DNA of 64,000 nucleotides from Acidobacteriota bacterium (GCA_963666215.2 CAXWPL010000004.1:896001-960000), one strand, 5' to 3'. Positions 3,204 through 8,882 are shown, numbered from the stretch's first letter. The notes: generated by a model from the letters alone, not told the origin. Made by a program: numbers and translations.

Positions 3204-3228
3204 CGTTGGGCGCGATGCCGACGGTGTT

Positions 3229-3693
3229 TTGAAGGCCGGACAGCTTGAGCTGCCGGATTCGTACCGCTACGGCGTGCTGTTGAGTGCGGATTTCTGGGAG
3301 TTCCTGCAGGAGACACGAAACCAGCTCGTGGTGCCACTGGAGCTCCTCAGGCTCTTCGTGGATCGTCCGACTGGCTGGGACTACCTGTGCTTCCTCGTGG
3401 CTCGCTGTGGGGCTGCCAGGCGGGCGTCGAAGGTGCCGCACGAGGCGTTGGTGTCACTCTTCAGGGACACAGAGAAGCAGAGCGATCGAAACATCATCCG
3501 ACGACTCAAGCGCTACCACGCTGAGATCATGGTGGCCACGGGAGGAAGACTCCGCGCTGAGCTCGTCGAGGATGGCCACTTCCCTGCTGCGGGGCGCGGA
3601 AGGCCGCGCAAACGTTGGGCGCTTGTCGTGCGACCGAGCAAGTCGGTGATTGTTGCCGGTAAGGTGATCGATCTTGAGGTGCCGGCAGAGTAG
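3229..3693 (+). pseudogene. repA: C-terminal half of a plasmid replication protein RepA (RepA_C / IncW-like family)
   Basis: GVLLSADFWEFL...VVPLELL...WDYLCFLVAR...VPHEALVSLF matches the C-terminal RepA_C pattern; no RBS; begins exactly at the TTGAA junction. Confidence 0.75.
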
Positions 3694-3792
3694 GAAGGCC
3701 ACACTTCCCTTACTACTAACGGCAACTTGCCGGATTTTCCGATAACTTGCTCGTCGTTCCGTCGAAAAAAGCCGAGTAGAGAACGTCCTATG

Positions 3793-3830
3793 GGTATAAG
3801 AGTCTACGGAAACTCTTAGACTCTTATACC
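3793..3830. repeat. Palindromic ACTC-box site (parS/operator-like)
   Basis: GGTATAAGAGTCTA-N10-TAGACTCTTATACC, perfect 14-bp arms. Confidence 0.8.
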
Positions 3831-4018
3831 AAAAGAGCTGTTGGGTTGAGCTCTTCGCCGGCAGCGGACCGCGTTTATGTGCCGCAAAAACGCGCCTAGA
3901 GGGCGCTCAGAGAACGCGACCCTGAAGGATGTGGTTTTCCTTGTTCTTAGGGCTACGGGCTCTTCTCGAGGCTCTTAGGAGCTCTGCGGGCATGCCTGGT
4001 TCGGAACACTCCCCTACC

Positions 4019-4795
4019 TCACGCTGCTTTGGCGAGCCTTTCGGTGGCGTACTGCTTCATCCGATACGTGAAGACTCGCGCGGGATGCTTTGCCCCATCG
4101 GCTTTGATCTCGGAGAGCGCCTGGAAGATGACGTTGTGCGGCACCTTCGACGCGACCAGATAATAGAACTTGTTTGACTTGTGATCGCCGAACTCAGCGA
4201 GGATGTCGTCGGTCATGAGTTTGGTGGCAGCTTCTTCTTCGTCGAGATCCGGGAGCGCCTTAAGGGGGTTTTTGCTTTTACCGTTGGGTTGGTAGCTAAC
4301 GGTATTAGTTTCTCTATTCACTTCTCTATTACTACTACCCTTCTCAGGGGTGGTCTGATCACGGACGCCTTGTTGAGCGTCGGTTGCGGGAGCCGAGAAG
4401 CGACTCTCGAGGTAGAACCACTCCTTGCGGCGAGAGCCGTCCTGCTGCTCGCTGATGTCAACCCACTCGCCGAGCACGAAGATGGTCTCGCGGCCGGTTC
4501 GAAGGCGCTTGATCACCCGAAGCTCCTCAAGAGCTTTCAGGTAGTCGGTCACTCGATTGACCGTCTTGATGCCTAGAGTCGCGGCCAACCGTTGTCGGCC
4601 AACAGCTGCAACGAGTTTGCGTTCCTGGTGGTAGAAATCCTGCAGCTGGAGACGGTGGGGGCCACCACGCCAAACGAACCTTCGGAGTGCCAGATACACG
4701 GCAAACTCGGGACGACGGAGGAACTCCTGAAAATCAGGGTCGTCGAGGAGCGCGAAGTCGAGCATCAGGAATTGTCGATTGAAGTTCTCCGTCAT
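4019..4795 (-). CDS. Putative second replication-initiator-like winged-HTH protein
   Basis: HTH-like RQRLAATLGIKTVNRVTDYLKALEELRVIKR; N/R/E/T-rich linker encoded by AT-rich TTCTCTATT repeats; small helical C-terminal domain. Confidence 0.55.
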   Translation of the reverse strand: MTENFNRQFLMLDFALLDDPDFQEFLRRPEFAVYLALRRFVWRGGPHRLQLQDFYHQERKLVAAVGRQRLAATLGIKTVNRVTDYLKALEELRVIKRLRTGRETIFVLGEWVDISEQQDGSRRKEWFYLESRFSAPATDAQQGVRDQTTPEKGSSNREVNRETNTVSYQPNGKSKNPLKALPDLDEEEAATKLMTDDILAEFGDHKSNKFYYLVASKVPHNVIFQALSEIKADGAKHPARVFTYRMKQYATERLAKAA

Positions 4796-4867
4796 AGGAA
4801 CACCCGCAGTATGGGGCGTAATCGCAGGTTTGGCGAGGTTCGGGGTGTGGATAGCAACCGGCCTACA

Positions 4868-4904
4868 GGTATAAGAGTCTACGGAAACTCTCGGACTCTT
4901 ATCC
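4868..4904. repeat. ACTC-box palindrome upstream of the 4019-4795 gene
   Basis: GGTATAAGAGTCTACGGAAACTCTCGGACTCTTATCC; overlaps the parG stop codon. Confidence 0.75.
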
Positions 4905-5162
4905 GAGCTTTCTGTTGGTATATTTGCTCAGGAGCTCAACGGCGACATCGCGCATTGAGCGGCCTTCTTGAGCCGCCATGACCTTGAGGGCGGCGTGCAA
5001 GTCAGCGGGCAAATCGAAGGTTGCTCGCACCCTACCCGGTGCGGGCTTTTTGCTGCGCGAGGAGGCCGGTGCCTTGTCTGGCGCCGTGGTAGCGGCCTTC
5101 CCTACAAAGGCTGCTTCGTCGAATCCCTTGCGGGCTTTCTTGGTCTTGCGTGGTGATTTCAT
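4899..5162 (-). CDS. ParG-like ribbon-helix-helix partition protein
   Basis: Disordered basic N-tail plus [37 protein letters not shown] overlap with parA. Confidence 0.8.
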
Positions 5163-6758: not shown

Positions 6759-6766
6759 GTCTCTAC

Positions 6767-6833
6767 AGTGTACGGGAAATCACGAGGTTGGCAATCGGAT
6801 AAGAGTCTACGGAAACTCTTAGACTCTTATACC
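6767..6833 (-). promoter_or_regulatory. TA promoter with adjacent ACTC-box palindrome
   Basis: Minus strand TTGCCA-N16-TACACT, 8 nt before the ATG; ATAAGAGTCTACGGAAACTCTTAGACTCTTAT upstream. Confidence 0.6.
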
Positions 6834-6951
6834 AAGTACAGACAGCCTACTGTGACGAAATCCATTTCGGCATGGTGATCATGATTGCCGAAATACGCAG
6901 ATAAGAGGATAAGGAGACTCTTATATACTATAATACTCTTAGTACCAAAAC

Positions 6952-8129
6952 GGGGATGTCACAGGCTCCGTTGAAAAAGGGTGACGGTGATCCGACCTCG
7001 ATAGTGTGTCGGGGTCAATCCACTGGCATGGAGGATCACCGTCATGAGCAAGAGTCGCAGAACAGAGACAAGTAGGAAAGCGGAGCGCCAAGAGAACCCG
7101 CTCCTGGAGGCAGTGGTAGCGGCGCGATCGGATCTACGAGCGCTGGTCATGGACGCGGGCTTCGGGGTGTTGGGTTCGCTGCTGGAAGAAGACCGGGCGG
7201 AGCTCTGCGGAGAGCGCTACGCGCGGTCACAGCAGCGGCGGGCGTACCGACACGGCTACGACGAGGGCTCGCTGGTGATGGGCGGCCGGCGGGTCAAGGT
7301 ACGCAAGCCGCGGGCTCGGAGCGTCGATGGCCAAGAGCTGCCGCTGCTGGTGATCGACGGCACGCACATGGGCAAGCACTTGTTGGTGATCGCCATGGGC
7401 ATCGACGCGGACGGCGTCAAGCATGTGCTGGGTGTCGTAGAGGGCACCACGGAGAGCTCCCACGTGTGCCGGTCGCTGCTGCGGCAGTTGATCGAGCGCG
7501 GCATGCCCGTCGAACGGGCGCGGTTGGTGGTAATCGATGGCTCCAAGGGCCTCCGTAAAGCAGTGCGCGACACGTTCGGCGAGTGGGCCCTGATCCAGCG
7601 CTGCCGTGTCCACAAGATCAAGAATGTATTGGAGCATCTGCCAGGGCATATCCGGCCCTGGTTCGCAGCCAAGATCCGCAAGGCGTGGAAGGCGGAGACG
7701 GCCACGGCAGCGACCAAGCAGCTCGACGCCGTGGTCAAGGAGCTGGAGACCGATCACCCCGGTGCAGCGGCCTCGCTCAGAGAAGGAATGCAAGAGACGC
7801 TCACCGTCACTCGGCTCCGAGTTCAGGGGCCGCTGCTTCGGACGTTACGTTCAACGAATACGATCGAGAACCTGAACGGGACGATCAAACACGTCAGCCG
7901 CAACGTAAAGCGGTGGCGCTCCGGGAGCATGATCGTTCGATGGGCGGTTACTGCACTCATCGAGGCCGAGAGCAAGTTCCGGAGGGTTCGTGGCTACCGC
8001 GACATCGCCAAGCTCGATGCCGCACTCAACACCGCCGTCGACGTTCCCCTTGAGCAGGAGCGCCGTACTGCGTAACAATCCCCAACCACTTCACCGTCGC
8101 CTTAGTTCAACGGACGGTGGGACATCCCC
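6952..8129 (+). mobile_element. IS256-family element, copy 1 (internally deleted)
   Basis: Inverted repeats GGGGATGTCACAGGCTCCGTTGAA / TTCAACGGACGGTGGGACATCCCC; matches copy 2 apart from indels. Confidence 0.9.
7044..8075 (+). pseudogene. IS256 transposase with a 231-nt in-frame deletion
   Basis: VIDG, IDGSKGL, QRCRVHK, STNTIENLN motifs; lacks 77 codons present in copy 2. Confidence 0.85.
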
Positions 8130-8226
8130 GCGAAGCCTACTACTGCTAGATAACTACTGTTCTTTAGATACTGAAGATACTGTTCTCCGCTGGCGCCCTT
8201 TGAGCTCAACGGGTTGGCGGGAATTA

Positions 8227-8310
8227 CGGGGCCTGATTCACGTACGCAGGGGTATTTTCGGGGCCTGATTCACGTGGAAAACGTGAGCGTCCACAAGGGC
8301 CTGTGGAAAG
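8227..8310. promoter_or_regulatory. Putative plasmid oriV: two 17-bp iterons and DnaA-box-like sites
   Basis: CGGGGCCTGATTCACGT at 8227 and 8259 (32-bp period); GTCCACA and TGTGGAAA just before repA. Confidence 0.55.
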
Positions 8311-8338
8311 GTGCTAGCCTGCCGTGCGGGGGTGAGGC

Positions 8339-8853
8339 ATGAGCGACTCGACGGATCGCATACTGCGGCGGATCTCGAAGCTCGCGGGCTTCGCGGAGCG
8401 GCTTGAGGAGGAGCGACGCATCGAGGTTATCCGCCTCGCGCGCGTGCTCGCGATCGCGGGGCTGCCGAAGCGGCAGGTGGACGCGAGCCATCTGAGCCGG
8501 ACGCTGCGTGTCGGAGCAGCGACGTGGCTTCGGGTCACATACTCGGTCGACGAAGGAGCTCCCCTACCCTACGGCGCTGATCGCTTTGTGCTCGCCGGTA
8601 TCCAACACCTGGCGCTCGAGCAAGATTCGCGGACGGTGCTGTTCAACCGGGTTGGCGAGCTGCTACACACGTTTGGCTTGAGCCAGGACGGACGCTCGGA
8701 CTCCTGCGGCAGCGATTCAAGCGGATCGCGGGGCTGTCGATCAGGCTGCGGTTTGGTGGGTCGCTGGCTGAGCTCGATGATGCCGACGTCGGTGAGCAGC
8801 TCTTCATCATCCGGCGGTACTCCCTGCCGACAGGTCGAGAGCTTCGGCTCTTG
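8339..8853 (+). pseudogene. repA: N-terminal half of RepA, with a frameshift near 8690
   Basis: LARVLAIAGLP, PLPYGADR, GELLHTFGL; continues in another frame as TLGLLRQRFKRIAGLSIRL...ELRLL up to the TTGAA junction. Confidence 0.78.
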
Positions 8854-8882
8854 AACACCGTCGGCCATGGCACTACCGCTCG

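Follow-up and report, generated by a model that had tools for sequence, protein, structure and literature searches.

How does a small plasmid come to lie within a bacterial chromosome when it carries no recognisable integrase, and why should it be opened within its own replication gene? The stretch of 64,000 nucleotides analysed here (the window; C4:896001-960000 of a genome of 4,648,177 bp in 5 contigs) raises this question. It comes from the chromosome of an uncultivated acidobacterium, sponge- or seawater-associated, and contains a 5622-bp element (3234-8855) whose opposite ends bear the two halves of a split replication (rep) gene and whose insertion point is the tip of a chromosomal hairpin. 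The structure is present in several samples, and no recombinase gene was found in the element. In our judgement it most probably records one old, reciprocal illegitimate crossover between plasmid and chromosome, a non-programmed event whose product is now decaying.

At the left junction GCCGACGGTGTT (3217-3228) is followed by TTGAA (3229-3233) and GGCCGGA, and at the right junction CTTCGGCTC is followed by TTGAA (8851-8855) and CACCGTCGGC (8856-8865). A preliminary description of this DNA, made from the sequence alone, had proposed both junctions, the flanking TTGAA copies and the 5622-bp unit, all of which are borne out. When the flanks are joined computationally through a single TTGAA, the resulting empty site has a perfect 12-bp stem and a 3-nt loop; folded as DNA it reaches -17.0 kcal/mol, against -5.5 +/- 2.1 for shuffled sequences (z about -5). 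This site, as had been claimed, lies between convergent VKOR and PAP2 genes, and both the folding and the Pfam matches of the two genes (Table 1) uphold the claim. Elsewhere in the 4.65 Mb there are 46 other perfect hairpins (stem of at least 12, loop of 3-8), making about 47 in total. The left arm has 3 exact copies in the genome, and so belongs to no repeat family. The weak dyad symmetry that had also been proposed for the plasmid side did not hold up, as it folds no better than expected with short flanks (z -1.8 and -1.1 with 20-nt flanks) and into a structure that varies with flank length. The G+C content of the element is 59.4%, compared with 64.6% in the window, and without its insertion sequence (IS) the element is single copy in the genome.

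It is the arrangement of the rep halves that points to a former circle. For the 3' half, 43 full-length proteins (283-383 aa) show 50-73% identity in their C-terminal halves. When the homologue P0005 (330 aa) was used as a tblastn query, its residues 39-126 and 124-179 matched at 8429-8847 and residues 183-328 at 3235-3669; the three residues left unmatched between these segments are the codons that cross the junction, with no gap. A profile built from 30 homologues and searched against the whole genome recovered the same permuted order, with positions 176-318 upstream and positions 6-122 and 118-173 downstream. The spacing from the 'LP[ST]' to the 'AGQ' motif is 8 residues in 13/14 relatives and also in the rejoined rep, and an AlphaFold model of P0005 places the crossover (residue 181/182) where a helix ends, immediately ahead of the linker that leads to the second half of the protein. 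The proposal that the halves rejoin in frame is thereby confirmed, the alignment to homologues being colinear without gap or overlap. Because the permuted halves are colinear with their homologues and keep the 8-residue spacing, the element would once have been a circle opened inside rep, and one copy of TTGAA would have belonged to that circle. At the level of sequence, these data support a once-circular, plasmid-like element that sits in the chromosome circularly permuted via its own replication-initiator gene.

The reading frame also bears on a different origin, in which a linearised plasmid was captured at a staggered chromosomal break and TTGAA is a 5-bp target duplication left by fill-in. 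A 5-bp direct repeat does flank the insert, the flanks retain, even without TTGAA, an inverted repeat of 10 bp around a 2-nt spacer, and the genome is rich in active IS256 copies. However, a circle lacking TTGAA would leave the rejoined rep out of frame and 5 nt short, whereas with TTGAA it is in frame with the 8-residue spacing; moreover, the ends of the element are not IS ends, the IS being internal. Capture of this kind is, in our view, very improbable.

A 5-bp overlap in a metagenome-type assembly of 5 contigs might equally arise if a free plasmid contig had been joined to the chromosome by the assembler, and junction-spanning sequence had been named as the check for such a misassembly. 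Support for the junctions comes from assembled contigs from runs of three studies (sponge and seawater type material), independent contigs of which span both junctions. Two X16 contigs of 11,164 and 4,170 nt cover 2700-3825 and 8104-9400, respectively, with no differences from the window; X2 contigs bridge both junctions (3038-3279 and 8652-8891), and an X1 contig bridges the right one (8530-9400). X16 is possibly the sample from which the window derives; substitutions and a 4-nt insertion/deletion polymorphism, however, distinguish X1 and X2 from the window. Cover in X4 is thin and consists of patches within the element, without flanks or rep halves. Runs X13-X18 contain 95-96% of the stretch. 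In addition, other assemblies encode proteins that read over the right junction; their contigs reach 316,919 nt, and no more than 5 N-terminal residues distinguish these proteins from the window. Set against these contigs, an artefact of assembly is scarcely credible. Two of the proteins, P0066 and P0195, continue over this junction into an identical run of 37 flank residues, yet differ at 5 N-terminal residues; taken together, the junction sequences point to one shared insertion event.

Comparison with relatives suggests the direction and relative age of the change. Among family-level relatives the VKOR and PAP2 genes are adjacent and convergent in 8/9, with tblastn matches about 0-90 bp apart. 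The nearest genomes compared belong to other genera of the same family, at about 70-73% nucleotide identity, and have not kept the hairpin; the rep gene is present in none of ten same-family genomes. Since relatives keep VKOR and PAP2 adjacent without rep, and since the junction is shared across assemblies, we conclude that the insertion is derived and predates the split of the sampled strains.

Two further observations concern the same samples. One X2 contig matches the window over some tens of bases up to exactly 3228, the last base of the left arm, and then runs for more than 255 nt without a match in the genome; it may stem from another organism, from a diverged empty site or from another insert. 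Separately, loose ends at 8585-8625 in X16, X1 and X4 belong to a related rep, of the P0004 type, in the same samples; the cluster of this type has 94 member sequences, and its contigs reach 274 kb. Contig depth in the bin 8524-8747 is 67, compared with about 5-15 for the chromosome, and this higher depth of the P0004 type indicates that related plasmids seem to circulate in the same communities.

Is the split, then, part of a system? One of the two readings offered in the preliminary description was a programmed switch using a host recombinase. In a more specific form of this reading, a site-specific enzyme of the host (Xer-like or another tyrosine recombinase) would act on the palindromic chromosomal site and on a pseudo-site in rep, integration turning replication off and excision restoring it. 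The geometry of the site is suggestive in this respect, as TTTTGAA (7 bp) is centred on the palindrome axis between perfect 10-bp inverted arms and is identical to the plasmid-side core at 6/7 positions; the product is cleanly reciprocal, the host genome has several tyrosine recombinase genes, and intact alleles of both rep halves persist in some assemblies. Against this, identity between the two sites spans only 5 bp, and the 10-bp arms on the plasmid side are unlike the chromosomal ones, matching at 2/10 positions on the left and 3/10 on the right. This also sets the locus apart from integrative mobile elements exploiting Xer recombination (IMEX), for which dif-like matching arms are expected in both partners. 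The chromosomal arms, furthermore, have no second palindromic occurrence in the genome.

The family of rep genes argues in the same direction. The gene is contiguous across the crossover in 16/16 distinct related copies, a count that leaves aside L017, cut at residue 108, and L023 and L026, cut by contig ends. It is likewise contiguous in 11/11 matches from other genomes of the phylum (7 of 400 have rep), and the copies split at the same codon that had been suggested as a test of recurrence were therefore not found. None of nine further short C-terminal proteins starts at the crossover. Among N-terminal fragments (nine short ones read, from the best 150 of 436 clusters) only P0066 ends there, and it represents the same junction; P0056, P0072, P0069 and P0213 break 9-30 residues from the crossover, at varying places. 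TTGAA is absent at the crossover codon in 14/14 relatives, one of which has it 9 nt upstream, and most relatives encode Ser/Thr-Glu where this plasmid encodes Leu-Leu.

The halves themselves have also been disrupted in different ways. In the window, the 5' half lacks 4 nt, GAAC, which are present after 8685 in the X1 contig and in P0066 and P0195, where the frame is open and reads 'SQNGRTLGLL'. The prediction that a repair of 4 nt would restore a protein of 326 aa was thus correct in its count. GAAC is missing from the window and from the X16 and X2 contigs, making this a true 4-nt polymorphism, and intact alleles are represented by P0066, P0195 and P0197. By contrast, P0194 has a different frameshift in the N-half, P0198 (on 3 contigs) has an IS256 end fused into the C-half and P0199 has a +1 shift. 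Judging from these sequences, the two rep halves appear to be decaying independently across assemblies.

Finally, the element carries a second, intact initiator-like gene, so the split of rep need not control replication. The split itself, as first described, stands; that integration thereby silences replication is not established, because this second gene is intact. With no recurrence, no TTGAA at the crossover codon of relatives and halves that appear to decay independently, we consider a programmed switch quite improbable and the alternative in the preliminary description, a one-off microhomology event, the better reading of the two.

Several other loci of the rep family were considered. 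L017 (G031:C30, about 4,569,768-4,570,415; residues 108-323) was rejected as a second split, as its left end is neither at a hairpin nor at the crossover. It is a chromosomal remnant in a Vicinamibacterales metagenome-assembled genome (MAG), lacks residues 1-107 and is flanked by IS630- and ISAzo13-like elements; the same MAG has two intact rep copies on separate contigs (L011 and L028). L014 is an intact rep (9968-10903) in a 6.78-Mb Thermoanaerobaculia MAG chromosome, between an IS256-type transposase and an Xer-type recombinase. The latter, 1.3 kb from rep, was rejected as an element integrase, being 49% identical to a chromosomal gene of the genome studied here (G000) and beside ftsY, and is probably the host's own. 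In one genome of the phylum, G392, the rep profile matches five times, each time on a different contig, suggesting an organism rich in plasmids or with several replicons. A scan of IMG/VR for the Rep family confirmed 0/7 pattern matches.

The nature of the split gene required some care, as the initial label 'RepA_C-like' could not be sustained: in profile hidden Markov model searches PF04796 (RepA_C) matched neither rep half (E ≤ 0.1) nor any of 30 full-length homologues (E ≤ 1). NCBIfam likewise gave no match for rep, a profile search of PDB sequences with the rep family gave 0 matches at E ≤ 10, and PF10134 (RPA) appeared in only 2/30 homologues, with a best E of 0.027 that lies below threshold. 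The family, which comprises 436 representative clusters at E ≤ 1e-3 with named loci mostly in Acidobacteriota MAGs, is more readily placed by structure. An AlphaFold2 model of P0005 (mean predicted local distance difference test score, pLDDT, 80.8) has two tandem winged-helix domains, and in Foldseek it matched domains D2-D3 of RctB (5tbf_A) at E 3.8e-8 (template modelling score, TM, 0.50/0.57), followed by Rep 8ac8_A (E 5e-3), chains of RepE54 (about 1e-2) and Pi 2nra_C (5e-2). Gene context agrees: genes for ParA and/or ribbon-helix-helix (RHH) proteins adjoin rep relatives in L011, L012, L013, L015/16 and L018, on contigs of 20-45 kb from Vicinamibacterales and Thermoanaerobaculia MAGs, and two Granulicella tundricola plasmids bear a relative that is 30-33% identical and annotated RepA.

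Because of this fold and gene context, and not of any Pfam label, we refer to the split gene as a replication initiator; that it has the two-winged-helix, iteron-type fold is well supported by the model. The family thus resembles RctB D2-D3, RepE (F), Pi (R6K) and Rep 8ac8/8aan in its predicted fold, its ParA neighbour and its RepA-annotated plasmid relatives, and differs from RctB/RepE/Pi-type initiators in lying beyond the reach of sequence models from Pfam, NCBIfam and PDB. As for the iterons and A+T-rich region expected beside the gene of such an initiator, only two direct repeats and an A+T-rich stretch lie upstream of rep; the adjoining IS may have removed more.

Could the element nonetheless encode its own means of integration? 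Nine reading frames, covering all of its non-overlapping open reading frames (ORFs), were scanned and no recombinase or relaxase was recognised, the matches being to Rep, ParA, RHH, helix-turn-helix (HTH), ParE, antitoxin and IS256 transposase. A tyrosine recombinase query found nothing in the element (best E 1.1). The second initiator-like protein, of 258 aa, has 94 homologues, the distant ones with PF04492 (Phage_rep_O), PF13730 (HTH_36) or PF06970 (RepA_N). Its AlphaFold2 model (pLDDT 77.8) gave no Foldseek match at E ≤ 1e-3 and no recombinase fold; the best weak matches were to TubR, the N-domains of RepA_N initiators and ArsR/SmtB. Domain scan, recombinase query and the fold of the 258-aa protein all agree with the earlier statement that no integrase or relaxase is recognisable.

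We therefore return to a single illegitimate crossover and propose the following course of events. The ancestor would have been a small theta-type plasmid of about 4.4 kb before IS entry, with genes for a two-winged-helix Rep, a second initiator-like protein, ParA and RHH proteins, an ArsR-type regulator with five operators and a ParE toxin-antitoxin pair. A single reciprocal illegitimate crossover with the chromosome would have occurred inside the 5 shared bases TTGAA, which on the plasmid lay in the linker between the rep halves and on the chromosome at the tip of the perfect 12-bp hairpin. The hairpin probably promoted the event. One candidate route is a stalled fork, at which the nascent strand may have made two template switches at the 5-nt identity. 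By another, a host type II topoisomerase working between the convergent genes may have made staggered cuts and exchanged partners; type II topoisomerases work where convergent transcription piles up supercoils. A third and less likely candidate is a host recombinase acting on the 10+7+10 palindrome. The integrant may have survived through a combination of a neutral site, a disrupted rep and a toxin-antitoxin pair that penalises loss, and would afterwards have been inherited vertically while it decayed.

A number of points weigh against a chance event of this kind. The loop is not a random target: an insertion without guidance would strike such a loop with odds of roughly 5 in 100,000, and restricting the permitted sites to neutral intergenic ones makes the odds less extreme but leaves them small. 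The exchange was also perfectly reciprocal and neither lost nor added a base, an outcome that simple end joining of two breaks does not produce. Together, the odds and the reciprocal product imply that the hairpin took part and that some structure-dependent step is needed. A 7-bp centre between perfect 10-bp arms is, moreover, the geometry of a simple recombinase core, and with intact alleles of both halves at hand (P0066, P0195 and P0197) excision could in principle restore rep in some lineages. Three of the four rep disruptions rest on single public assemblies and are possible assembly errors, only the 4-nt difference having been seen in independent contigs. Lastly, only assembled contigs were examined, from which rare forms are dropped; neither the circle joint nor the empty-site joint occurs among the assembled contigs of X16, X1, X2 and X4, a result that is for the same reason uninformative on excision.

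These points leave some room for a more specific role of the hairpin tip as a landing pad. In such a scheme a host activity on extruded or single-stranded loops would pair a loop of 5-7 nt with matching plasmid sequence and carry out a precise strand exchange, candidates for the activity being a topoisomerase, an Xer-like enzyme or an unrecognised single-strand recombinase. We hold this to be unlikely. If true, terminator-like hairpins would capture plasmids without an integrase and, in principle, reversibly, and in lineages that keep both rep halves intact a working replicon would be restored on excision.

The illegitimate crossover that we favour has precedents in the laboratory. Hofemeister in 1983 and Bashkirov in 1987 are said to have described short-homology illegitimate integration of pE194 in Bacillus subtilis. 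In Escherichia coli, for a plasmid that carried a restriction-modification addiction module and whose replication was blocked, one report describes reciprocal illegitimate crossover products at 1-3 bp of identity in 2/28 (type III) cases (PMC3031569). Our locus resembles such Campbell-type integrations in that a whole, colinear plasmid entered through a single reciprocal exchange, at a non-recurrent site and over only a few bases of identity, with no element-encoded recombinase and with an addiction module that favours cells keeping the plasmid. It differs in that the exchange took place within rep and exactly where a perfect hairpin has its tip, features not reported for the laboratory cases consulted (PMC3031569). 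Moreover, it arose naturally, in an acidobacterium that has not been cultivated, and is fixed across samples.

Elements with SSV1/pTN3-type integrases, the pT26-2 family of archaeal plasmids and phages with integration-dependent immunity reportedly have their attachment (att) site inside a gene of their own. As at our locus, integration of the SSV1/pTN3 type splits a gene of the element and leaves the pieces at opposite ends. However, those elements encode their own integrase and recur at the same position through long conserved att cores, usually in tRNA genes, whereas here we find no integrase, 5 bp of identity and no recurrence. With regard to mechanism, gyrase-mediated illegitimate recombination is a known process. 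Microhomology-mediated template switching is another, described as microhomology-mediated break-induced replication and fork stalling and template switching (MMBIR/FoSTeS; PMC2621351). Both processes share with our locus a junction identity of a few bases and an association with structures that stall forks or attract topoisomerases; the difference is that they are described for deletions, duplications and phage-plasmid hybrids. Full-text searches outside the subscription journals turned up no account of plasmid integration through rep at the loop of a hairpin.

The remaining features of the element are consistent with a small plasmid and are collected in Table 1. Its only transposase, as had been stated, belongs to a defective IS256 copy; relative to the ~35 genomic copies it lacks about 206-218 bp of its interior, between short repeats, and this deletion and the partial PF00872 match confirm the defect. 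The copy is otherwise 99-100% identical to these ~35 genomic copies, and no target duplication is visible around it, which, together with the deletion, suggests a later rearrangement beside the putative origin. Across the 4.65-Mb genome the IS256 family is highly expanded (~35 copies at 93-100% identity).

Palindromic putative operators stand before each operon of the element, and 3/5 abut promoter-like sites (hexamers). A genome-wide motif search found only these 5 and one variant, at C5:1264020. The arrangement looks like a global control circuit under a single repressor, which is probably the ArsR-type or the RHH protein. The variant palindrome at C5:1264020 and a ParA-like stretch at C5:1,276 kb were considered as a second element and rejected: the neighbours are MacB-like, a truncated serine recombinase and an IS1595 transposase, with no Rep copy. 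The 258-aa protein varies across assemblies (compared with P0215) only by one 16-residue repeat unit (QTTPEKG-like) in a disordered linker.

Table 1. Features of the element and its chromosomal flanks, in positions of the window
Feature	Position	Strand	Evidence or remark
VKOR family gene, left flank	2766-3203	+	PF07884, E 4.3e-16
Left hairpin arm, GCCGACGGTGTT	3217-3228		Pairs perfectly with 8854-8865 after removal of the element
Crossover core TTGAA, left copy	3229-3233
rep 3' half (153 codons, second winged-helix half)	3232-3693	+	Homologues and profile positions 176-318
258-aa winged-helix protein, intact, second initiator-like (phage O / RepA_N-like N-domain and helical C-domain)	4019-4795	-
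Ribbon-helix-helix protein (partition adaptor or repressor)	4899-5162	-	PF22513, E 2.8e-6; beside ParA also in L011
ParA-type partition ATPase	5159-5806	-	PF13614, E 5.8e-22; PF01656, E 1.9e-20
ArsR-type HTH regulator	5847-6152	-	PF12840, E 3.8e-10
ParE-type toxin	6241-6534	-	PF05016, E 5e-9
Antitoxin of the ParE-type toxin	6531-6758	-	PF09720, E 5e-12
Palindromic operator (putative), ~30 bp, 5 copies (D1/D2)	3798-3826, 4873-4901, 5829-5857, 6194-6222, 6801-6829
Defective IS256-family element	6951-8130	+	40-nt inverted repeats 6951-6990 and 8091-8130
IS256 transposase ORF	7044-8075	+	PF00872, profile positions 180-376 only
Putative origin region (predicted): A+T-rich stretch with short ACTG-type repeats	8140-8275		Upstream of rep
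Two direct repeats in the putative origin (repeat family D6)	8219-8243, 8251-8275
rep 5' half	8339-8853	+	Profile positions 6-122 and 118-173; in this assembly 4 nt are deleted after 8685
Crossover core TTGAA, right copy	8851-8855
Right hairpin arm, AACACCGTCGGC	8854-8865		First two bases are the last two of TTGAA
PAP2 superfamily gene (PAP2_3), right flank	8883-9770	-	PF14378, E 5.3e-17

The event at this locus is of a known kind, and its structure is unusually informative. It provides a natural case, resolved to the base, of an integrase-free plasmid becoming chromosomal DNA in an uncultivated lineage; the event can be dated relative to the divergence of strains, and stages of its decay are visible. 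The rep family defined here adds a group of winged-helix plasmid initiators for which there was no model. The position at the hairpin is the only part of the finding that could yield something new about illegitimate recombination.

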